From the NCBI GenBank assembly GCA_964373795.1, contig CAYJVY010000019.1:1-7321 (forward strand): 7,321 bases of DNA. The letters are read 5' to 3'. Shown piece after piece: positions 96 through 7,321 of the stretch (position 1 is its first letter; the number at the start of each line of letters is the position of its first letter). The position numbers and the translations under genes were made by a program. Source of the DNA: an uncultured archaeon (GTDB lineage Archaea > Iainarchaeota > Iainarchaeia > Iainarchaeales > DATDZZ01). Under the pieces are notes generated by a model. It was not told where the DNA came from, ran no database searches, and saw only the letters and a program-made list of their open reading frames with translations.

Positions 96-566
96 ATGGC
101 TTTCAAGTTTTTTGTTTTATTTGTATTTGTTTTATTGCTTCAAGGCTGTATTCAAGGCAATTCAATTAACTCTAAAACTGATTTGAATTCTTCTTTGAAT
201 GAATTTTGTTTTTCTAATCAGAAATGCATTCAAATTGAAACAGCTTTAACAGAGTCCGAGAGAATGAATGGATTAATGTTTCGTGAAACCTTGCCTGAAA
301 CTCAAGGAATGCTTTTTGTTTTTCCAGAATCAAAGGTTTATTCTTTTTGGATGAAAAATACTTTAATTCCTTTAGATTTGATTTGGATTAATGAATCAAA
401 AGAAATAATTGATTTAACTGAAAACTTTCAACCCTGCATTCAAGATCCTTGTCCTTCAAAATCTTCTTCCAAGCCAGTTAAATATGTTTTAGAAGTTAAT
501 GCAGGTTTTGTGGAAAACAATAAAATTAAAATAGGGGAAAAAGTGTTATTTGATTTAAGTGATTAA
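96..566 (+). CDS. DUF192 (COG1430-type) domain protein with an N-terminal signal peptide and a lipobox-like LLLQGC (Cys18, nt 147..149).
   Basis: The translation contains the DUF192 hallmark block GLMFRETLPETQGMLFVFPESKVYSFWMKNTLIPLDLIWINESKEIIDL ... KYVLEVNAGFVENNKIKIGEKV. The hydrophobic N-terminus MAFKFFVLFVFVLLLQGC is typical of an exported protein. Confidence 0.85.
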   Translation: MAFKFFVLFVFVLLLQGCIQGNSINSKTDLNSSLNEFCFSNQKCIQIETALTESERMNGLMFRETLPETQGMLFVFPESKVYSFWMKNTLIPLDLIWINESKEIIDLTENFQPCIQDPCPSKSSSKPVKYVLEVNAGFVENNKIKIGEKVLFDLSD

Positions 567-1260
567 TTTGCTTGACATAAAAGAAAACTTGCAAAACGTT
601 AAACAAAAAATTAAAACTGCTTGCAAAAAAGTGCATAAAAATTCTGACTTGATTAAATTAATTGCTGTAACTAAAAATTTTTCTGTTCAACAAATTAATG
701 AATTAATTTTTTTAGGGGAAAAAAATATTGGTGAAAACATTGTTCAAGAGGCATTAGAAAAATTTCCTTTACTTAAAGGTAAAACTTTAAAGCATTTTAT
801 TGGGCATTTGCAATCAAACAAGGTTTTAAAAGCCTGTCAATTGTTTGATTTCATTCAATCAATTGATTCATTAAAGATAGCAAAAAAGGTTTCAGATACA
901 TGCATTAAATTAAAGAAAAAAATGCCTGTATTAATTCAAGTCAATATTGGGCGAGAAGAACAAAAATTTGGTTTACTTGAAGAAGACTTGAATTCATTTC
1001 TTTTAAAAGCATGCAAACTTAAAGGAATTCAAATTCAAGGCTTAATGGCTGTGCATCCATTTCATGAAGAAAGAGAAAAATCCAGGATTTATTTTTGGAA
1101 AATGAATCAAATCTTTAAAGAAGTTTCTGCAAAAAAATTTCCAAATATTAAAATGAAGTTTCTTTCAATGGGCATGTCTCAAGACTTTGACATTGCAATT
1201 GAAGAAGGCACAAACATGGTTCGCATAGGAACTGCAATTTTTGGTGAAAGAAAAAATTAA
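559..1260 (+). CDS. yggS: YggS/PROSC-family pyridoxal-phosphate homeostasis protein (alanine racemase N-terminal fold).
   Basis: Family motifs are present: LIAVTKNFS (PLP-lysine context), GENIVQE, FIGHLQSNKV, IQSIDSLKIAKK, VLIQVNIGREEQKFG, IQGLMAV, LSMGMSQDFDIAIEEGTNMVRIGTAIFGER. The start must be non-ATG (GTG 559 or TTG 568), because the first in-frame ATG lies far downstream of the PLP lysine. With the GTG start it overlaps the DUF192 gene by 8 nt. Confidence 0.9.
   Translation: MINLLDIKENLQNVKQKIKTACKKVHKNSDLIKLIAVTKNFSVQQINELIFLGEKNIGENIVQEALEKFPLLKGKTLKHFIGHLQSNKVLKACQLFDFIQSIDSLKIAKKVSDTCIKLKKKMPVLIQVNIGREEQKFGLLEEDLNSFLLKACKLKGIQIQGLMAVHPFHEEREKSRIYFWKMNQIFKEVSAKKFPNIKMKFLSMGMSQDFDIAIEEGTNMVRIGTAIFGERKN
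1251..1256 (-). terminator. A6 on the + strand, which reads as T6 on the - strand, immediately downstream of the tgt stop. Candidate oligo-T terminator for tgt, embedded in the last yggS codons.
   Basis: The minus strand reads TTAATTTTTTCTTTCACC after the tgt stop. This mirrors the T7 tract on the other side of the shared TTAA. Confidence 0.2.
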
Positions 1261-2369
1261 TTTATTTTTTTCCCTAAATAATTTTCTTTGAATTCTTTTG
1301 CAAATTTTTGAAAAGAGTTTTCTTTCAAGCTTGTTCTAATTTCTTTCAATAAATTTGTTACAAAAGAGACATTATGATAGCTTAGAAATCTTTTAGCATT
1401 TGGTTCATCTGTTCTAAGTAAGTGATGCAAAAAAGCTTTTGAATAAGTTTTACATATTTTGCATTCACATTTTTCGTCTAAAGATTTTTCGTCTTCTGCA
1501 AAACTTTTCTTTCTCAAATCAATGTTTCCTTGAAAAGTAAAAATTAATCCATGGCGAGCTGATTTTGTCGGAAACCGTGAATCAAAGCAATCAATGCCTT
1601 GCGAAATTGATTCAAGCAATTCTAAAGGAGTTCCAACTCCCATTAAATAATGGGGTTTTTCTTTAGGCAAATGCTTTGCACAAAATTTTACAATTTTTTT
1701 TGTTTCATTTGATGGTTCGCCAATTGCTAGTCCGCCTAAAGCTATTCCGTCAAAACCTATTTCGGAAATTTTTTGAATTCCTTTTTCTCGTAAATCTAAA
1801 TTTAATCCGCCTTGAACAATGCCGAAAAGTAGTTGTCCTTGCATTGAATGAATTTTTTTTGAACGTTTTGCCCAAGAAATTGTTCTATTCAGTGAATCAA
1901 TTATTCTTTCCTTTGATTGATTTGGCAAGGGCATGTCATCTAAAACCATTACAACATCTGTCTTTAATGTTTCATTTATTTTTATTACGTCTTCTGGTTG
2001 AATTAAATGCTTTGACCCATCAAATGGACTTTTAAAAAACGCTCCTTTATCTGAAATTTTTTCCAAGAAACTTTCAGAGCCTGTTTGAAAGCCTCCTGAA
2101 TCAGTGAAAATTGTTTTAGGCCATTTAGAGAATTCGTGAATGCCTTTAAATTTTTCAATTACTTTTAATCCTGGTTTTAGATATAACACTAAAGAATTTG
2201 ATATAATGCATTGAACTTGCATTTCTTGTAGTTCTTGTGAATCCAAAAATTTTACTGCAGTTTTTGTTGCAACAGGCATGAAAAAAGGAGTTTCAATTTT
2301 TCCATGCAAAGTATGCAGCAAACCAGTTCTGGCAAAATTTTTACTATCTTCAGAAATTATTTCAAACAT
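1257..2369 (-). CDS. tgt: tRNA-guanine transglycosylase / queuine tRNA-ribosyltransferase, bacterial/eukaryal type (370 aa, no PUA or C-terminal archaeosine domains).
   Basis: The motifs match the bacterial type: TPFFMPVATK, TDSGGFQ (catalytic Asp), LFGIVQGG, GGLAIGE, HYLMGVGTPLELLESISQGIDCFDS (second catalytic Asp) and the Zn site CECKICKTYSKAFLHHL (CxCxxC...H). The archaeal ArcTGT equivalents as I recall them (VDSGSFQ, CSCPVC) are not matched. Confidence 0.9.
   Translation of the reverse strand: MFEIISEDSKNFARTGLLHTLHGKIETPFFMPVATKTAVKFLDSQELQEMQVQCIISNSLVLYLKPGLKVIEKFKGIHEFSKWPKTIFTDSGGFQTGSESFLEKISDKGAFFKSPFDGSKHLIQPEDVIKINETLKTDVVMVLDDMPLPNQSKERIIDSLNRTISWAKRSKKIHSMQGQLLFGIVQGGLNLDLREKGIQKISEIGFDGIALGGLAIGEPSNETKKIVKFCAKHLPKEKPHYLMGVGTPLELLESISQGIDCFDSRFPTKSARHGLIFTFQGNIDLRKKSFAEDEKSLDEKCECKICKTYSKAFLHHLLRTDEPNAKRFLSYHNVSFVTNLLKEIRTSLKENSFQKFAKEFKENYLGKKIN
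1265..1271 (+). terminator. T7 tract immediately after the yggS stop. Candidate oligo-T (archaeal-type) terminator, embedded in the last codons of the convergent tgt.
   Basis: The sequence is TAATTTATTTTTTTCCC. There is no room for a hairpin terminator because the two genes overlap. Confidence 0.25.
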
Positions 2370-2391
2370 TAAATTATTTTTTCTTTCAAAG

Positions 2392-2401
2392 CATTTAAAT
2401 G
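2392..2401. promoter_or_regulatory. Palindromic TATA-like element CATTTAAATG in the 63-bp divergent spacer. On the minus strand it is centred about 26-27 nt upstream of the tgt ATG. It may also serve the + strand MBL gene, or that gene may use TTTAAAAA at 2410..2417.
   Basis: It is a perfect 10-bp palindrome containing TTTAAAT in both orientations. The spacing to the tgt start matches the other candidate boxes. The assignment for the MBL gene is ambiguous, at 35 nt versus 20 nt. Confidence 0.3.
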
Positions 2402-2432
2402 AATTTAGCTTTAAAAATGTTTTAGTGATTTA

Positions 2433-3179
2433 ATGCAGTTAACTGTTTTAGGCAGTGGATCAATTCATTCAAATTTAAATAGAAATCCAAGTGGTTACTT
2501 GCTTAAAGCTGGAAAAAATCTTGTTTTAATGGATTGTGGTCCAGGCATTAGAATTCAATTGCTTAAATTAAAAATTGATTTAAGAAAAATTAACTTGATT
2601 TTGCTTTCCCATTTTCATGTAGATCATTTTAATGATTTAATTGCATTGCTTTTTTCTTTTCAAGTTCCTGCTTGGGAGAACCAAAAAGTTAGAAAACCTT
2701 TAACTATTATTGGGCCTAGTGGAACAAAAAAACAACTTGCTTTAATTAAAAAATTAATGCATTTGACAAAATTTGATTTTCCATTAAAAGTAAAAGAATT
2801 GCATAACTCTTCAATGAACTTCAATGGATTGAAAATTGTTGCAAAGCCAATGAAGCATTTAGGCAATGCAAATGGTTATAGGTTTTCATTTAAAAACAAG
2901 GTTTTAACTTATTCGGGAGACACAACTTATTGCAATGAAATTATTTCTCTTGCAAAAAATGCTGATTTATTAATTTTAGAATGCGCTTCAATTAAAGAAC
3001 ATAAACTTCATTTAAATCCAATTCAATGTGGAGAAATTGCATTCAAATCTTCTCCTAAGAAATTGCTTTTAACTCATTTTTATCCAGTGATTGAAAAATT
3101 TAATATAAAAAAATTAGTTGAAAAAATCTTTAAAGGAAAGACTTTTGTTGCAAAAGATTTAATGAAATTCAGGTTTTGA
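2433..3179 (+). CDS. MBL-fold metallo-hydrolase, Lactamase_B_2 / RNase Z (ElaC)-like short form (248 aa).
   Basis: An ordered metallo-beta-lactamase motif set is present: LMDCGPG, HFHVDH (HxHxDH), KHLG (His), YSGDT (Asp), LLLTHF (His). The N-terminus MQLTVLGSGS is typical of the RNase Z/PhnP-like group. The exact substrate cannot be assigned. Confidence 0.8.
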   Translation: MQLTVLGSGSIHSNLNRNPSGYLLKAGKNLVLMDCGPGIRIQLLKLKIDLRKINLILLSHFHVDHFNDLIALLFSFQVPAWENQKVRKPLTIIGPSGTKKQLALIKKLMHLTKFDFPLKVKELHNSSMNFNGLKIVAKPMKHLGNANGYRFSFKNKVLTYSGDTTYCNEIISLAKNADLLILECASIKEHKLHLNPIQCGEIAFKSSPKKLLLTHFYPVIEKFNIKKLVEKIFKGKTFVAKDLMKFRF

Positions 3180-4622
3180 TTTTTTCTTTTTAGGCGTTTG
3201 TTCTTTAACTTGTTCTTTTTTTTCGGTTTTTTCTACTTCTTTTTTTTCCTTTAATTCACTTGCTTCAATGCTTTGTTTTGGTTTTGTTGCATTAGATATT
3301 TTTGCTCCAAGCCATTTAATGAAATCAAATACTCCCATGTCGTGTTTTAGTATTTTAGCGTTTGTAGTTAAAACTACTCCTGCTACAAGAATTATTGCTG
3401 ATTGAATTAATACATTCATTAACATTGTTCTAGAAATTTCTTGGAAAACTATTACTAGTTTTCCTCCTAGAATGTCTTGAAATCCGAAAAATTGTTCAAG
3501 CATTGAAGGCATTAAAATTAATCCTAGAGCAGTTGGAATGAAAGTTGAAAATCCTGCTGAAACAAATGCTCCTCCCACCCATTGAAATATTGCTTTAATT
3601 GAATGCAAATTTAATAAAACCATTAACAAAATAACCATGACTAAAAAAAGCAATAAATATCTTGAAATAAAGAAATATAATTTAATTAATTTTCTTGCTT
3701 CTTCTAAAATACTTAAAGCTACTGGGTCAATGAATGTCTTTAAATTAATTTTTTCAGGAATAGCAAATTCTTCTGCAACATTAGGGAAACTTAATTCATT
3801 GTTTTTAGGTAACCTTTTTGTTTGAAAAAAAGCAATTCCTTGTGTTTTTTCTTGAAGATTTCCTTTACATTTTGGAAGAGAAATTCCGCCTACAAGTCCT
3901 TCTAAGTCTTTTTCACTTACTCCTTCTGAAATGCATGCTCCTTCTTCACTAATTCCTTGAATTAAGTTGTTTAAATCTGAAGGTATTTCAAAGTCTTGTG
4001 GAATGTCTTTTGCAATTTTTTGTACAACGTTTTCAATTAATTCTTGTGTTTCTTTTTCAGAGCATTCAGGTAAATTTTTTGGAATTTCCACTCCTTCAAA
4101 TTGTTTTTCAAATTCTTTTGCATCAATTCCTTGTGGAATGCATTTAACTTCGCTTTTAATTAAATCATTTAATTCCATTTTAACTACTTCTTTAAGCAGG
4201 TTTTCAGGTTTAAGTGTTTCTTTTGCTTTTGAAGGAATTGCTACAGTTAAATCAATTTCATTAAATTCTTTTTCTGATTTCAGGTAAGCAAAGCTTTCCT
4301 TTAATAATTTAATTATTTCTTTTTTCATCCATTCTTTTGAAAAGGTTTCCAATATAAGTGGTTTAACTCCTTTAAGTAAAGCATTATTGCTTCCAAATCT
4401 ATCCATTGTTGAATCAATGCTTGAATGAATTTCTCCATACAAGTCATGTTTTTCAAATGCATCTAAGTAAATGTTTTCATTCAACAAGTTTTGAGCGTTA
4501 TTGAAATTAATTATTAAAGGATAACCTAAAGAGAAAGTCGCGAAAAGAAGGATTAAAGCCATGTATCTAACAAATTCAAATAACTTGAATATAATTCTTT
4601 TAACTATTTCAATTAAAGCCAT
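3159..4622 (-). CDS. Orphan integral membrane protein (487 aa). It has an N-terminal TM (about aa 21-39), an acidic extracytoplasmic domain of about 270 aa with two Cys-bracketed loops, a cluster of three C-terminal TMs (about aa 313-420) and a Lys/Glu-rich cytoplasmic tail.
   Basis: It is a long uninterrupted ORF. The hydrophobic segments are MALILLFATFSLGYPLIINF, YFFISRYLLLFLVMVILLMVLLNL, IFQWVGGAFVSAGFSTFIPTALGLILMP and LMNVLIQSAIILVAGVVLTT. The tail is KEKKEVEKTEKKEQVKEQTPKKKKSKPEFH. The basic N-terminus and tail fit the positive-inside rule for a 4-TM, N-in/C-in topology. I recognise no family. Confidence 0.75.
   Translation of the reverse strand: MALIEIVKRIIFKLFEFVRYMALILLFATFSLGYPLIINFNNAQNLLNENIYLDAFEKHDLYGEIHSSIDSTMDRFGSNNALLKGVKPLILETFSKEWMKKEIIKLLKESFAYLKSEKEFNEIDLTVAIPSKAKETLKPENLLKEVVKMELNDLIKSEVKCIPQGIDAKEFEKQFEGVEIPKNLPECSEKETQELIENVVQKIAKDIPQDFEIPSDLNNLIQGISEEGACISEGVSEKDLEGLVGGISLPKCKGNLQEKTQGIAFFQTKRLPKNNELSFPNVAEEFAIPEKINLKTFIDPVALSILEEARKLIKLYFFISRYLLLFLVMVILLMVLLNLHSIKAIFQWVGGAFVSAGFSTFIPTALGLILMPSMLEQFFGFQDILGGKLVIVFQEISRTMLMNVLIQSAIILVAGVVLTTNAKILKHDMGVFDFIKWLGAKISNATKPKQSIEASELKEKKEVEKTEKKEQVKEQTPKKKKSKPEFH
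3180..3191 (+). terminator. T6-C-T5 tract directly after the MBL stop codon. Candidate oligo-T terminator, formed by the antisense of the Lys codons in the convergent gene's poly-Lys tail.
   Basis: The sequence is TGATTTTTTCTTTTTAGG. The MBL gene and the membrane-protein gene overlap by 21 nt, so any terminator must lie inside coding sequence. Confidence 0.25.
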
Positions 4623-4765: not shown

Positions 4766-4822
4766 ATGTTTAAAAAATTATTAATTGCTTTTCTAGTGTT
4801 AACAATTTTGTTAGCTGGTTGT
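4766..4822 (+). other. Signal peptide with a canonical lipobox L-A-G-C (Cys19).
   Basis: The sequence is MFKK (basic n-region), LLIAFLVLTILL (h-region) and AGC, which fits [LVI][ASTVI][GAS]C. Confidence 0.7.
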
Positions 4823-7321
4823 ACTTCTGGACAAATAAAAGTTTTGAAAGATTTAGGATTAAGTGATGAACAAATAAACACACTTAACTCATTGTCTTCA
4901 AGTGAAGATTCTGGAAGCGGAGTAATTGATCACACTAATGCTTCTACTGTTGTTCAATTTATTGAAAAAGCTTTTCCTAGTTTACCATTAGATAAAGAAA
5001 TTCAATTAATTGTAATTGATTTAACTGAAAATACCTTTCAAATATCAAATTATACTCCTGGTCAAGCAGTTCCAGAAGAAGAAATTTTTAGAAAAAAACC
5101 TGTAGCTGATGGATTTGTATTAAATCCTGGAGCAGATGTATTTGTTGCAGTTAAAGATCCTTCAAAGCCAAATACAACTGTTGATGTTTTAATTGGAGAA
5201 ACCAAAATTCCAGTTAAACTTAACAGAACAGGAGTAGGAGTTGTTTACGTTCCATATAGTACTGTTACTAGTCTTCCTAAAGATGAGCAAGTTAAACTTT
5301 CTTGGACTGCTCGAGATCCAGAAAACCCAAATAAACCTTTAAGTGGTTCTACTTTAGTTACTTTCACTTCTCCTCGAACTAATTCAAATGTTCCAGGTAA
5401 AGATATAGAAGTAAAAAATTTACAAACTACTTTAACTTTAGCTTATCCTAATGTGATTCCCAATACTGATAGATATCTTTTAACAAAATTTGTAGTTGCT
5501 AGTGATGATGAAAAAGAATCTGGTTGTGCTTTTCCACCTACTGACTTAAAACCAGGATACACCAAAACTTATGTAATTAAAGCAGATATTTTAACTAATC
5601 CAACTAATACAACAGCTTCACTAGGTTTCGATAGTAGTGGAAATACTGTTAATGTTGGAAGTGTAACTGTTAATTCTGCTAGTAAAGTTCTTAGTAATTT
5701 TAAATTAAAGGCAGGAGCAAATGATGATGTTCTTGTTAGATCATTTAAAGTTACTTATAAGGATTCTCCTACTTGTGAAATTTATTTTGGGCATGGCACT
5801 GAAGTTAAAGTTCCAGCCGGGACAACAAAAACATTTAGTCTTAAAGCAGATGTTGATGTAATTTATTCCTCAACTTATACTCGTCAACCAGAACCTGAAC
5901 CCACTTCCACTGTTTCAAGCAATACATTAACTATTACTAATCCAACAAGTGGTTTTGCTGTTGCAGATAATACTATGAATAAGTTTGCTAATATTCGTCT
6001 TTTATTGCCTGGTGGAACTGAAGTAGGTTGTGTAGGATATCCAGGGCAGTCAATGAATCCTAATTCAAGTTCTGTTATAGGTTTTGTTATTACTGGAAGT
6101 GATATAAAAAATGCTGTAAGAGTTGAAAGAAGTTTTGAAGATGTTTCTACTAAGACTAGTGGTGGTGAGAATGTTTCTCTTGCAAAATGGAATTTTACTG
6201 CTTTGAGTACTAATAATGATGTTAAAGTAACTAGTCTAAAAGTAAAGATTAATGGAGTGGACACTTGTTCCTCTGAGTTTCCCCCATTTAAAGTTGCTCC
6301 AGGCGAGTCTAAAATTATTACTTTAGTGGCAGACTTAAGTACAGTAAGTTGTGAAGCTGCTTGCATTGATTGGAGTGCTTGCTCTAACGGCATTCAAACC
6401 CGTACTTGTGGAGTGGTTCCAGTTTCTTGTCCTCAACCCGAAACATCTCGTTCATGCACTGATGCAGTTACTAGTGCTCCTGGACAAATAACTATAACTC
6501 CTGTGGGGCCAACTGGTAATACTCTTGCAAAGTTTGACGTTAAAGCAGGAGGATCTGATTTCACATTAACTTCAATAAAGATTAATGGAGTAGGCATTAA
6601 AGATAAAACTCCTTTTGATGTTTCAATGCAAAATGCATTAGTATCTTTATGGAATGGAAATGTGGAGGCAGCTGACTGTTCTTCAAGTGATTTATGTAGG
6701 ATTAACTTTACTGGAGACTTAGCTACTATTCCTAAAAACAGTTCAGTAACTCTTACAGTTAAAGGAGATTTTATTAAACCGCCTGTAACATCTGGTCCAT
6801 ATGTAGTATTTGATTCATCTACTCCTACTGATTCAACTTCTGCTTGTGTTCCTAATTGGGTTGCAGATCTTACAACTCTTAGTCCTTGGAGTGGGTGGAG
6901 TCCTGAATGGCCCGCTTGTGCTGGAGGAGATCAAACAAGCACTGCAACAGTTACAATGAAGGAAACTAAGTGCGGTAATCCTCCAAAAGTTGACACAGTT
7001 TCTAGGTCAAGGCATTGTAAAGATAAAAAAAGTGGTTCACAGAAATGGATTAGCTTAGGAGACAATGAAAAACAATCAACTACCTACGCTTCAGCAATTG
7101 ATACTGAGAGTGGAACTGTTGTTGCAGCCCCTCCATTGAATGGAATTCCAGTTTACACTATTAGTTTTTCTGATGTGTTTTTTGCTGCTACTGCTAAGGG
7201 TTCTAGTAGTACTCCTGATAAGAGGTTTTATCATGAAGTTGATTTGTCAACAATGCCTAGTGGAATATTTTTGTGGTGGATTAAGGATATTCCAATGCCT
7301 CCGGAGAAAAATATATCTATT
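4766..7321 (+). CDS. Large secreted or lipid-anchored cell-surface protein, 5' part only (852 codons, open to the window edge). It is Thr/Ser/Asn/Val/Gly-rich and built from repeated beta-modules plus TSR-like Cys/Trp modules.
   Basis: I translated it by hand and found no stop from ATG 4766 to 7321, which is exactly 852 codons. An in-frame TAA lies at 4718..4720 just upstream. The N-terminus MFKKLLIAFLVLTILLAGC is a classic signal peptide with a lipobox. Amino-acid usage is coherent along the whole length. The track omits it, presumably because no stop lies within the window. The antisense ORF 5884..6393 lies entirely inside it. Confidence 0.85.
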   Translation, partial: MFKKLLIAFLVLTILLAGCTSGQIKVLKDLGLSDEQINTLNSLSSSEDSGSGVIDHTNASTVVQFIEKAFPSLPLDKEIQLIVIDLTENTFQISNYTPGQAVPEEEIFRKKPVADGFVLNPGADVFVAVKDPSKPNTTVDVLIGETKIPVKLNRTGVGVVYVPYSTVTSLPKDEQVKLSWTARDPENPNKPLSGSTLVTFTSPRTNSNVPGKDIEVKNLQTTLTLAYPNVIPNTDRYLLTKFVVASDDEKESGCAFPPTDLKPGYTKTYVIKADILTNPTNTTASLGFDSSGNTVNVGSVTVNSASKVLSNFKLKAGANDDVLVRSFKVTYKDSPTCEIYFGHGTEVKVPAGTTKTFSLKADVDVIYSSTYTRQPEPEPTSTVSSNTLTITNPTSGFAVADNTMNKFANIRLLLPGGTEVGCVGYPGQSMNPNSSSVIGFVITGSDIKNAVRVERSFEDVSTKTSGGENVSLAKWNFTALSTNNDVKVTSLKVKINGVDTCSSEFPPFKVAPGESKIITLVADLSTVSCEAACIDWSACSNGIQTRTCGVVPVSCPQPETSRSCTDAVTSAPGQITITPVGPTGNTLAKFDVKAGGSDFTLTSIKINGVGIKDKTPFDVSMQNALVSLWNGNVEAADCSSSDLCRINFTGDLATIPKNSSVTLTVKGDFIKPPVTSGPYVVFDSSTPTDSTSACVPNWVADLTTLSPWSGWSPEWPACAGGDQTSTATVTMKETKCGNPPKVDTVSRSRHCKDKKSGSQKWISLGDNEKQSTTYASAIDTESGTVVAAPPLNGIPVYTISFSDVFFAATAKGSSSTPDKRFYHEVDLSTMPSGIFLWWIKDIPMPPEKNISI
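5678..5860 (+). repeat. Protein-level module R1: ASKVLSNFKLKAGANDDVLVRSFKVTYKDSPTCEIYFGHGTEVKVPAGTTKTFSLKADVDV.
   Basis: It shares with R2 and R3 the pattern L-x-K/N-F/W-x-h-x-A-x-x-x-D/N-h-x-h-x-S-h-K-h ... C ... P-(A/G)-G-x-x-K-x-h-x-L-x-A-D. A shorter, weaker copy (R0) lies at 5468..5593: DRYLLTKFVVASDDEKESGCAFPPTDLKPGYTKTYVIKADIL. Confidence 0.5.
6170..6346 (+). repeat. Protein-level module R2: NVSLAKWNFTALSTNNDVKVTSLKVKINGVDTCSSEFPPFKVAPGESKIITLVADLSTV.
   Basis: It follows the same pattern as R1. It also contains the 16-nt string TAAAGATTAATGGAGT (6243..6258), which recurs exactly and in the same frame in R3 (6576..6591). Confidence 0.55.
6350..6457 (+). other. Cys-rich module 1 (6 Cys, 36 aa): CEAACIDWSACSNGIQTRTCGVVPVSCPQPETSRSC. 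Thrombospondin type-1 repeat (TSR)-like.
   Basis: The core WSxCSxxGxQTRTC parallels the TSR consensus WSxCSxTCGxGxQxRxRxC. It has six cysteines and a trailing R-x-C. Confidence 0.5.
6515..6775 (+). repeat. Protein-level module R3: GNTLAKFDVKAGGSDFTLTSIKINGVGIKDKTPFDV...CSSSDLCRINFTGDLATIPKNSSVTLTVKGDFI. This is a longer variant with an insertion.
   Basis: LAKFDVKAGGSDFTLTSIKINGV aligns with LAKWNFTALSTNNDVKVTSLKVKINGV of R2. The ending ...SSVTLTVKGDF parallels ...KTFSLKADV and ...KIITLVADL. Confidence 0.5.
6845..7018 (+). other. Cys/Trp module 2 (4 Cys, 58 aa): CVPNWVADLTTLSPWSGWSPEWPACAGGDQTSTATVTMKETKCGNPPKVDTVSRSRHC. TSR-like tryptophan ladder.
   Basis: W-S-G-W-S-P-E-W (6887..6910), followed by C-x-G-G-x-Q-T and a distal S-R-S-R-x-C, mimics the WxxWxxW...C...GxGxQ...RxR layout of TSRs. 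Confidence 0.45.

Follow-up and report, generated by a model that had tools for sequence, protein, structure and literature searches.

The gene and its features

The window, a stretch of 7321 nt, is an entire NCBI contig. A reading frame on the forward strand is open from an ATG at 4766 to the end of the window, with 852 codons and no stop. Since the window is the whole contig, the gene lacks its 3′ part. Its features are the following.

4766..7321, + strand: truncated gene for a secreted multi-domain surface protein of at least 852 residues, its open frame running off the contig end
4766..4822, + strand: signal peptide with a lipobox-like L-A-G-C motif (Cys19); the protein starts MFKKLLIAFLVLTILLAGC
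5651..5863, + strand: beta-rich repeat a (residues 296-366), a putative Ig-like sandwich
6149..6343, + strand: beta-rich repeat b (residues 462-526), directly upstream of module 1, found by internal similarity
6350..6457, + strand: module 1 (residues 529-564), a six-Cys TSR-like repeat copy, from the family HMM, hhalign, AF2 and Foldseek
6473..6781, + strand: beta-rich repeat c (residues 570-672), between modules 1 and 2, from a pattern common to repeats a and b
6845..7018, + strand: module 2 (residues 694-751), a four-Cys Trp-rich module, from canonical TSR profiles and Cys positions
6866..6901, + strand: putative 12-residue insertion in strand A of module 2 (residues 701-712, DLTTLSPWSGWS), from deletion in silico
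7019..7321, + strand: C-terminal segment (residues 752-852), cut by the contig end

The whole protein matches no Pfam or NCBIfam model and no whole-length homologue was found in homology searches. The preliminary description had taken it for a surface protein and the signal peptide and lipobox in the sequence bear this out, the protein being secreted, multi-domain and lipid-anchored. The anchor, through Cys19, is predicted from the motif, and the Pfam LPAM_1 match to the signal peptide is faint (E = 2.5). Strands are predicted for repeat b in a single-sequence AF2 model of low confidence, and repeat c is tentatively grouped with repeats a and b by its pattern, with very weak similarity scores. 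The C-terminal segment matches no Pfam family and AF2 confidence there is low.

A prokaryotic family of Cys/Trp repeats

The motif strings originally quoted for the two modules are exact on translating 6350..7018. Module 1 (CEAACIDWSACSNGIQTRTCGVVPVSCPQPETSRSC) has six cysteines, at 529, 533, 539, 548, 555 and 564, in the framework C-x3-C-x2-W-x2-C-x2-G-x-Q-T-R-x-C-x6-C-x8-C. An exhaustive search gave a single hit, which fell on module 1 (E = 4.7e-5). It scores 34.2 bits (E = 1e-12) against an HMM of the resulting family that was built without the window, and hhalign aligns it to the family profile with a probability of 97% (P = 6e-11). Judged by its sequence, module 1 is no chance pattern but a genuine member of a family of Cys/Trp repeats of about 45 residues.

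About 180 copies of this repeat were recovered from 22 proteins and seven loci. The repeat is common in Patescibacteria, and further copies lie on one archaeal contig and on metagenome contigs of no assigned taxon. L002 is a Minisyncoccales MAG, in which nine modules are followed by TSP3_bac, Big_13 and a transmembrane helix, while L003-L008 come from metagenomes; L008 adjoins a gene for ribosomal protein S6e, which makes its contig archaeal. The nearest match to the core of module 1 (WSACSNGIQTRTC) sits on an archaeal contig. P0002-P0022 have between 1 and 13 modules each, and one of them bears the label 'Patescibacteria group bacterium'. The repeat lies outside all Pfam and NCBIfam models, so the motif does not belong to an already described prokaryotic Cys-rich domain of those collections.

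The signature of the repeat is [FYW]-x-[YC]-x-x-W-[SG]-x-C...G-x-Q-T-R, with aromatic residues at W-5, W-3 and W0 instead of the Trp ladder of the thrombospondin type 1 repeat (TSR). The cysteines at W+3 and at the C-terminus are invariant, and those at the N-terminus and in 'P-x-G-C' nearly so. Two further cysteines, at W-3 and R+2, covary perfectly: both are present in 31 modules, neither in 127 and one alone in none. This implies, as far as covariation can, a disulfide between strand A and strand B that loosely recalls group 2 TSRs. The four-Cys and six-Cys subtypes that result are spread over many architectures, in Patescibacteria and in at least one archaeon. All six framework cysteines, the co-varying pair included, are present in module 1, which differs from most of the family at W-5, where it has Ala while 151 of 158 modules have Phe, Tyr or Trp.

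Arrangement and possible role of the modules

The window protein has two isolated copies among its beta-rich repeats, whereas its relatives carry tandem arrays, with up to about 15 head-to-tail copies in L004 and 13 in P0002. These arrays are joined to enzymes and binding domains (GH10, PG_binding_1, peptidase S8, CARDB and Big domains). In the window protein the modules would form rigid, disulfide-stabilised extracellular units between beta-sandwich domains, and may space the protein and present it away from the membrane. An aromatic and basic face formed by W536, Q543 and R545 may bind glycans or other envelope polymers of a partner cell, by analogy with TSRs and the pleiotrophin/midkine (PTN/MK) domains; ligand binding is established for both families.

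The modules might instead be architectural only, rigid stalk or spacer units that bind no ligand, with host recognition residing in other domains. Small disulfide domains in tandem commonly serve as rigid stalks or spacers; the long arrays of the relatives, their fusion to enzymes and binding domains and the placing of single modules between beta-rich repeats in the window would all suit such a role, and the modules are without the Lys/Arg-rich clusters through which PTN/MK bind heparin. The sole argument on the other side is the analogy with TSR and PTN/MK ligand binding. We regard a purely architectural role as a serious possibility, somewhat short of an even chance, and any part of the modules in binding glycans or envelopes as something that may be the case.

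Predicted fold and relationship to the TSR superfamily

The AF2 model of module 1, made with an alignment of 118 rows, has a pLDDT of 90.3 and three strands (6-9, 19-27 and 37-39). The repeat is predicted to fold as a small three-stranded sheet stapled by two invariant disulfides, and in the six-Cys subtype, module 1 included, the third, co-varying disulfide would join the end of strand B to strand A. Foldseek matches that cover the full length at low rmsd are C8alpha, the sMAC complex chain 7nyc_C, C7 and UNC5A, with TMq values of 0.44-0.53. C8alpha, C7 and UNC5A are confirmed as TSR-carrying, though each match is to the chain, its aligned part not being reported. The three strands and the TSR-bearing best full-length matches would be in keeping with the TSR proposal, but at E values of at least 0.11 the matches are not significant. 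The top viral match, in BFVD, is A0A6J5N7M8 (probability 0.96, TMq 0.56, 35% identity over 46 columns, E = 0.11), a protein of an uncultured Caudovirales phage that UniProt names 'Thrombospondin type-1 (TSP1) repeat (Fragment)'; a prokaryote-associated relative is thus already labelled TSP1 in a public database. Neither tblastn on GenBank phages, with type A and type B arrays, nor a scan of IMG/VR gave a match.

The comparisons of sequence profiles point the same way. Three profile searches against all PDB sequences matched only pleiotrophin, midkine and the TSR of Toxoplasma MIC2 (E = 0.013-4), the matches weakening with a larger alignment (E = 0.3 to 4). When each of 118 modules was scanned by itself against 24,736 Pfam models, five families recurred: PTN_MK_C (in 24 modules), ELAPOR1_C (11), TSP_1 (8), TSP1_spondin (4) and TSP1_ADAMTS (4); TSP1_CCN and all other families were matched once each, and the far more numerous Cys-rich families EGF and TNFR never appeared in the scan. 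The best single-module E values were 8.9e-4 for PTN_MK_C, 0.0056 for TSP1_spondin and 0.0073 for TSP_1, and a nine-module protein matched PTN_MK_C with E = 0.0085. These fall below the Pfam cut-off: the PTN_MK_C gathering score of 25.3 bits is not reached, the best whole-protein scores being 15-16.8 bits, and module 1 has no match to this model. Neither module, nor the family, reaches the gathering score of any of the TSP_1-clan models checked (PF00090, PF19028, PF19030 and PF19035). With hhalign the family aligns to canonical TSRs with P = 8.6e-5, the W-S-x-C and G-x-Q-x-R elements being in register, and to the PTN/MK C-domain with P = 2e-5.

Module 1 had been described as very close to the TSR consensus, which proved too strong: taken alone it matches nothing in Pfam at E ≤ 10, and its 0.5 bits against a canonical TSR HMM are reached by 472 of 3000 shuffles. 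Compared with a canonical TSR it lacks the WxxWxxW ladder, with one Trp (W536) and one Arg (in Q-T-R-T-C), and the second Cys of CSxTCG is missing. Of the known families it is the TSR superfamily that the modules resemble most. The TSR proposal is partly supported, the repeat being a prokaryotic TSR-like variant and not a canonical TSR.

Taken together, we think it rather likely that 4766..7321 encodes a lipid-anchored surface protein of a probable member of the Patescibacteria in which module 1 is a bona fide repeat copy, and that the repeat, from its signature and predicted fold, is a remote relative or a close structural analogue of the TSR superfamily, the closest known version being the C-domain of pleiotrophin and midkine.

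Whether such a likeness reflects descent can be viewed in two ways. The repeat of Patescibacteria and DPANN-like archaea may be truly homologous to the TSR and PTN/MK superfamily of eukaryotes, and used by ultra-small episymbionts to attach to host envelopes, a reading that we hold tentatively and consider somewhat unlikely. If it were true, a large branch of an adhesion fold regarded as 'eukaryotic' would have gone unrecognised in prokaryotes, a branch ancestral to that fold or anciently exchanged between domains, and the lipoprotein of 4766..7321 would be one example of its use in host attachment by episymbionts.

Alternatively the repeat could be an independent prokaryotic invention that converged on the W-x-x-C...G-x-Q-x-R motif and on the shape, with no ancestry in common with TSR or PTN/MK. 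None of the TSR-related statistics, taken by itself, reaches conventional significance (Foldseek E of at least 0.11, PDB profile E of at least 0.013, hhalign probabilities of 60-83%), the Cys framework, with its extra N-terminal Cys and no CSxTC pair, is unlike both TSR groups, and the range of folds open to short Cys-rich three-stranded modules is narrow. Against this, the weak matches, ELAPOR1_C apart, concentrate in the TSR clan and leave out EGF and TNFR, the likeness to the midkine C-domain extends in register over C-x-Y-x-F-x-x-W-G-x-C and K-T-R-T, and the hhalign P values lie between 1e-4 and 1e-5. On this evidence we consider convergence unlikely, and continue with the repeat as a remote relative or close structural analogue of the TSR superfamily.

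Module 2

Module 2 has cysteines at 694, 718, 736 and 751 and tryptophans at 698, 708, 711 and 715, and its pattern exceeds chance to a modest degree. Against the seven-sequence canonical TSR HMM it scores 14.2 bits, which none of 3000 composition-matched shuffles reaches, and hhalign aligns it to the canonical TSR profile with a probability of 83% (P = 9.4e-6) over 49 ungapped columns in which WSxWSP is kept. Pfam TSP1_spondin matches it with E = 0.011 over positions 3-50 of the 52 in the profile, its 16.5 bits lying under the cut-off of 41. With the family HMM from which the window was left out, the score is only 0.5-1.0 bits, within the range of shuffled sequences (635 of 3000 reach 1.0), and the hhalign probability against the family profile is 5%.

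The four cysteines of module 2 match the positions of the four-Cys subtype if an insertion of 12 residues is allowed. Deleting residues 701-712 in silico raised the family-HMM score from 1.0 to 11.8 bits (reached by 2 of 3000 shuffles), which is weak evidence as both this deletion and the Cys matching are post hoc, the deletion having been designed after the data had been seen. It is this putative insertion that supplies the WSxWS look of the module. With its four core cysteines and neither of the co-varying pair, module 2 is consistent with the covariation in the family. It is probably, on these residue patterns, a divergent copy of the same repeat as module 1, and would most simply be seen as a degenerate copy in which the two co-varying cysteines and the Arg have been lost and a Trp-rich insertion has been added. 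The assignment of module 2 to the family draws on the Cys positions and on the post hoc deletion.

A stacked Trp-Arg ladder had also been proposed for module 2. The Trp-rich WSGWSPEW is indeed present, but the arginines are on the wrong strand: there is no RxR, the strand-B position of which reads Q-T-S-T-A, and the arginines of SRSRHC lie on the C-terminal strand. The Trp spacing, W-x-x-W-x-x-x-W, is one residue longer than in the TSR ladder.

It is quite unlikely that module 1 alone is real and that WSGWSPEW and the Cys pattern arose by chance in a linker or belong to an unrelated small domain. Such an origin would account for the family-HMM and family-profile results, for the lack of any homologue of the module 2 segment in the searches and for a single-sequence AF2 confidence below 50 there; the region was moreover picked by eye for its TSR look, which makes the P values optimistic. 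The canonical TSR HMM score, the hhalign P value and the near-complete TSP1_spondin match speak against it, as do the four cysteines, the CxPNW start, WxxC-x2-G-x-QT and the SRS-x-C end, which mirror the family and module 1.

Host and origin

The host had been left as an archaeon or a bacterium. The Tgt encoded in the window is of the bacterial queuine type, with 403 bits against the TIGR00430 cut-off of 307, and because it lies above that cut-off a bacterium is favoured and an archaeon less likely. The host would most likely be a low-GC bacterium, probably of the ultra-small Patescibacteria (CPR). This placement of the window draws on one marker gene and on the taxa of the relatives; the archaeal contig that carries the nearest core match is a point against it.

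Recent transfer from a eukaryote, raised in the preliminary description, appears unlikely, as the detectable relatives of module 1 are all prokaryotic and the repeat has diversified. That the modules are genuine eukaryotic-type TSRs recently acquired from a eukaryotic host is very improbable: the ungapped 49-column alignment of module 2 and the GC content of 0.38 in this part of the gene, compared with 0.25-0.29 elsewhere, would fit, but the raised GC can be explained by a composition rich in Thr, Ser, Gly, Pro and Ala, neither module reaches any TSR model threshold, relatives of module 1 were found only in prokaryotes (among 1.84 billion representatives and contig collections), the family has diversified into two Cys subtypes joined to many kinds of partner domain, and in module 2 strand B carries no Arg and just two cysteines align with those of TSRs.

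Comparison with known systems

Among the relatives, P0001 ('CANQCGDWSACVSGFKTRTCVQIPAGC...QQTC') has the same six-Cys framework as module 1, C-x3-C-x2-W-x2-C-x2-G-x-[QK]-T-R-x-C-x6-C-xn-C. The relatives are secreted or anchored, as is the window protein, though P0001, L002, L003 and L008 have a C-terminal transmembrane helix where the window protein has a lipobox.

The canonical TSR (PDB 1lsl; found also in properdin) is a three-stranded elongated module of similar size to that predicted for the repeat, with a different Cys framework. In group 1 TSRs the disulfides are C1-C5, C2-C6 and C3-C4. The C-S-x-T-C pair of TSRs is absent from both modules.

The C-domain of PTN/MK (PF01091; PDB 1mkc, 8voi and 2n6f), a cytokine domain of vertebrates and invertebrates with C1-C3 and C2-C4 disulfides in midkine, matches the family better and more often than any other domain. 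The two share in register C-x-[YF]-x-[FY]-x-x-W-[GS]-x-C followed by [KQ]-T-R-T, with four cysteines in the same order, and the four-Cys subtype fits the form of the motif with W-G-x-C. Module 1, reading C-E-A-A-C-I-D-W-S-A-C, has Cys and Ala in place of the two aromatic residues of PTN/MK, and an extra disulfide.

The window and its gene content

The window corresponds to the whole of a 7321-nt NCBI contig and is AT-rich, with a GC content of 0.25-0.33 across most of its length. It contains five complete genes and a sixth that is open at its end:

96..566, DUF192 protein
559..1260, YggS-like PLP-binding protein
1257..2369, minus strand, queuine tRNA-ribosyltransferase (Tgt), bacterial type (TIGR00430, 403 bits; cut-off 307)
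2433..3179, MBL-fold hydrolase
3159..4622, minus strand, predicted membrane protein of 487 aa, its C-terminal tail rich in Lys and Glu, without any family match
4766..7321, plus strand, surface-protein gene, from the ATG at 4766 stop-free to the last base (852 codons)

The genes are packed very tightly, as in reduced genomes. Overlaps of 4-21 nt are seen for DUF192/YggS (559-566), YggS/tgt (1257-1260, convergent) and MBL/487-aa (3159-3179, convergent). Scans for tRNAs and for Rfam RNAs in the window were both empty. An antisense ORF of 169 aa (5884-6393, minus strand) overlaps the surface-protein gene and covers the beginning of module 1; nothing supports it as a coding sequence, and it is most probably spurious. 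The gene for the 487-aa protein is divergent from the surface-protein gene. An identical copy of this protein is encoded on a 2370-nt Logan contig (run ERR3478686), where it also adjoins an MBL-fold gene; the surface-protein gene is absent from that contig.

The N-terminus of the surface protein, MFKKLLIAFLVLTILLAGC, is a signal peptide closing with a lipobox-like LAGC. Thr, Ser, Val and Pro are abundant in the protein, which contains three weakly related beta-rich repeats. As a whole it has no Pfam or NCBIfam match, a word-index search returned nothing at E<=1e-3, and an AlphaFold2 model of residues 479-852 from the single sequence was unusable (pLDDT 43). The preliminary description had quoted two Cys/Trp modules from this protein, and 6350..7018 translates exactly to the strings quoted. 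Module 1 (residues 529-564; 6350..6457) has six cysteines, while module 2 (residues 694-751; 6845..7018) has four, with tryptophans at 698, 708, 711 and 715. Both are located in the 3' half of the gene, where the GC content reaches 0.38-0.39 (6001-7000), as compared with 0.25-0.29 in the intergenic region and the 5' part of the gene. The rise may be an effect only of the Thr/Ser/Gly/Pro/Ala-rich composition; alternatively, it may reflect a mosaic origin of the gene.

Membership of module 1 in a prokaryotic repeat family

An exhaustive phmmer search with the surface protein against 1.84 billion representatives matched one protein, P0001 (E 4.7e-5, eight stretches), with the best stretch at query residues 523-562, i.e. 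module 1. P0001 carries nine tandem modules of ~47 residues with the pattern C-x-Y-x-Y-[SG]-D-W-[SG]-x-C-..-G-x-[KQ]-T-R-..-P-x-G-C-...-Q-T-C; after them come bacterial TSP3 repeats, then Big_13 and, at the C-terminus, a TM helix. Pattern scans gave a paralogue-like protein of 820 aa from a Minisyncoccales MAG (Patescibacteria; locus L002) and six metagenome loci with the repeat (L003-L008), of which L004 carries ~15 tandem six-Cys copies of the form C-x-P-N-W-x-C-x-x-W-[SG]-x-C-x-N-G-x-Q-T-R-T-C-x-D-x-N-x-C-G. A further 21 proteins (P0002-P0022) with 1-13 modules each, one labelled by NCBI as coming from a Patescibacteria group bacterium, were harvested with 38 modules joined into a query of 1757 residues; the E-values of this search are meaningless as homology statistics and its matches were re-verified with a local HMM. 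A word-index search with an 11-module alignment gave 20 candidates, none scoring, and the index seems ill-suited to short queries.

When module 1 was scored against a family HMM built from ~178 modules with the window left out, it reached 34.2 bits (E 1.1e-12 for one sequence), whereas 2000 shuffles of the surface protein gave at most 14.8 bits. Profile comparison with hhalign agreed (97%, P 6e-11). The six-Cys spacing of module 1 is exactly matched by two copies in P0001 (CANQCGDWSACVSGFKTRTCVQIPAGC...QQTC), and its core, WSACSNGIQTRTC, is identical to that of the module at L008. On these sequence comparisons module 1 is a member of a real, uncurated prokaryotic repeat family.

About 180 copies of the repeat were found in this small sample, in Patescibacteria and on an archaeal contig. 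The latter is L008, where the gene for a 372-aa module-bearing protein (2350-3468) lies 0.7 kb upstream of a gene for ribosomal protein S6e (4166-4606; PF01092, E 3.6e-25); because of this neighbour the contig is taken as archaeal, and the family therefore spans Bacteria and Archaea. The relatives' modules themselves have no Pfam or NCBIfam match, either precomputed or new. Among their partner domains are Big_7, Big_13, TSP3_bac, Kre9_KNH, a GH10 glycosidase, PG_binding_1, peptidase S8, CARDB, DUF11 and beta-helix. No viral source emerged from a scan of IMG/VR or from tblastn searches of GenBank phages with arrays of types A and B.

Several relatives have bacterial TSP3 repeats (type 3-like, calcium-binding), Big_13 and a C-terminal TM helix downstream of their TSR-like arrays. 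This layout is Pfam-confirmed for P0001, P0003 and P0009, and was assigned by eye from the sequence for L002:2452-4914 and the 1051-aa ORF of L005. 'Thrombospondin' repeats of the type-1-like and the type-3 kind are thus found together in proteins of prokaryotes. On a 434-kb contig, the gene for P0006, a protein of eight modules, has a DsbA/thioredoxin-like gene (L009:298-1044) ~5 kb upstream, which may be relevant to oxidative folding of the Cys-rich arrays; no gene of this kind is visible in the window. A 321-aa protein at L003 has one six-Cys module directly before its C-terminal TM helix. The name of that contig ('Hain-H51-01um') suggests, from the name only, a filter fraction of 0.1 micrometre, and this would be in keeping with ultra-small cells.

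Anatomy of the repeat

Residue counts were taken from 158 parseable modules. The central Trp is present in 153, and position W-5, five residues before it, is Phe, Tyr or Trp in 151; module 1 is a six-Cys copy in which the Ala at W-5 is unusual. Past the Cys at W+3 runs the motif G-x-Q-T-R-T, with the Gln in 129 modules, the first Thr in 112 and the second in 89. Position W-3 is Tyr in 125 modules and Cys in 31. A Cys at W-3 and a Cys two residues past the Arg occur together in 31 modules, are both missing in 127 and never occur singly, these counts being uncorrected for relatedness. Such covariation is the signature expected of a disulfide, which would tie strand 1 to the end of strand 2.

The family resembles TSRs and, more closely, pleiotrophin and midkine

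The preliminary description had likened module 1 to a thrombospondin type 1 repeat (TSR). As a single module this likeness did not hold up: module 1 has no Pfam match at E<=10 and scores 0.5 bits on a canonical TSR HMM, a value reached by 472 of 3000 shuffles. With single modules, phmmer against the PDB returned only noise (factor H, eIF2-gamma).

Three family-profile searches of all 177,635 distinct PDB sequences matched the C-domain of midkine, pleiotrophin and the TSR of Toxoplasma MIC2, and nothing else, with E-values of 0.013-0.9 for 11 modules and 0.3-4 for 50 or 118 modules. In the midkine and pleiotrophin alignments C-x-Y-x-F-x-x-W-G-x-C and K-T-R-T are in register with the family. Each of 118 modules (alignment A4: P0001-P0022 and the window) was scanned on its own for matches to 24,736 Pfam models, with E<=10 as the limit. 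PTN_MK_C was matched by 24 modules (best 8.9e-4), TSP_1 by 8, TSP1_spondin and TSP1_ADAMTS by 4 each and TSP1_CCN by one; multi-module proteins gave repeated, sub-threshold matches to PTN_MK_C. ELAPOR1_C (PF23089), a eukaryotic Cys-rich domain, was the second most recurrent weak match (11/118, best E 4.1e-4), and every remaining family was, like TSP1_CCN, a singleton. Assignment as a zinc ribbon or as a Cys domain of the EGF/TNFR type was rejected, as neither recurs among the weak matches of the 118 modules. By hhalign the family aligns with a canonical TSR profile (TSP-1 TSR1-3 and properdin TSR1-4, sequences verified) at 60%, P 8.6e-5, and with the PTN/MK C-domains at 77%, P 2e-5.

AlphaFold2 modelling of module 1 with the 118-row alignment gave a pLDDT of 90.3, with strand regions at residues 6-9, 19-27 and 37-39. 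Foldseek found no significant match to this model in the PDB, which is not surprising at 42 residues. Matches of full length and low rmsd were C8alpha (3ojy_A, 8b0f_E), a chain of an sMAC complex (7nyc_C), C7 (8b0g_C) and UNC5A (4v2a), with TMq 0.44-0.53; C8alpha, C7 and UNC5A were verified as TSR-containing, the aligned target residues not being reported. The remaining matches, PTPN18 and Aster domains, had rmsds of 6.7-9.3 A. The top match in BFVD was a phage protein named 'Thrombospondin type-1 (TSP1) repeat' by UniProt (E 0.11, prob 0.96, TMq 0.56, 35% identity). The family-level evidence is consistent, yet never formally significant. We regard the repeat as a module resembling the TSR superfamily, its nearest counterpart there being the PTN/MK version; homology is probable.

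Module 2 as a candidate degenerate copy

In sequence comparisons canonical TSRs are matched better by module 2 than by module 1. On the canonical TSR HMM module 2 scores 14.2 bits, a value reached by none of 3000 shuffles, and hhalign aligns it with canonical TSRs over 49 ungapped columns (83%, P 9.4e-6). Pfam TSP1_spondin is matched at profile positions 3-50 of 52 (E 0.011, 16.5 bits, cut-off 41). In the alignment with canonical TSRs Trp708 and Trp711 correspond to the second and third TSR tryptophans and Cys718 and Cys751 to C2 and C5. The positions of the strand-B arginines hold Ser and Ala and the arginines of SRSRHC are on the last strand, so the Trp-Arg ladder proposed for this module is unsupported in that form.

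Against the window-free HMM of the repeat family module 2 scores 0.5-1.0 bits, within the range of shuffles, and hhalign gives 5%; earlier scores of 22-49 bits were circular, module 2 being in the training alignment, and are superseded. Its four cysteines can be placed in the core positions of the family frame: Cys694 begins C-x-P-N-W, as in the six-Cys form; Cys718 is the W+3 Cys, Cys736 the mid Cys and Cys751 the terminal Cys, which follows SRS as it does in module 1. Both members of the co-varying pair are missing. Removal of residues 701-712 in silico, a post hoc test, raised the family score to 11.8 bits, reached by 2 of 3000 shuffles. Module 2 is fairly likely to be a degenerate member of the family that has gained a Trp-rich insertion, the main alternative being a chance resemblance. 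The window contributes one good and one degenerate copy of the repeat, in a truncated gene.

Discussion

The surface protein carries an export and lipid-anchor signal and the fold predicted for the module is compact and three-stranded. The modules would be rigid, disulfide-stapled extracellular units between beta-sandwich domains. By analogy with TSRs and PTN/MK they may offer an aromatic and basic face for binding glycans or the envelope, plausibly serving attachment to a partner cell. That they are purely architectural spacers is about equally likely, because in relatives long tandem arrays are attached to enzymes and other binding domains. To our knowledge the attachment mechanisms of ultra-small, host-dependent microbes are largely unknown. 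The repeat would give a name to a common, unannotated building block of their surface proteins and supply a testable hypothesis, and the alignments could seed a new family model, bringing domain annotation to hundreds of 'hypothetical proteins'. For the window alone the gain is modest: one more truncated member.

The lipobox, the presence of a bacterial-type Tgt and the occurrence of relatives in Patescibacteria suggest that the host of the window is a bacterium, probably of the CPR. Textbooks treat TSRs as adhesion modules of eukaryotes, known from thrombospondin, properdin, ADAMTS and the Plasmodium proteins TRAP and CSP. In the literature searched, no paper was found that describes TSR-like repeats from prokaryotes, whether CPR, DPANN or others, and the usual view is that TSP1 domains are animal domains passed to apicomplexans (PMC3417536). 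Nothing in the searches for relatives points to recent transfer from a eukaryote. Of the preliminary description, the observation of the modules is confirmed and its interpretation survives in part, as a TSR-like variant. The modules represent an uncurated prokaryotic variant within a known class of fold, neither canonical TSRs nor a recent eukaryotic import, and a diversified prokaryotic repeat sharing the motif logic and predicted fold of the TSR would alter the view of where that fold originated.
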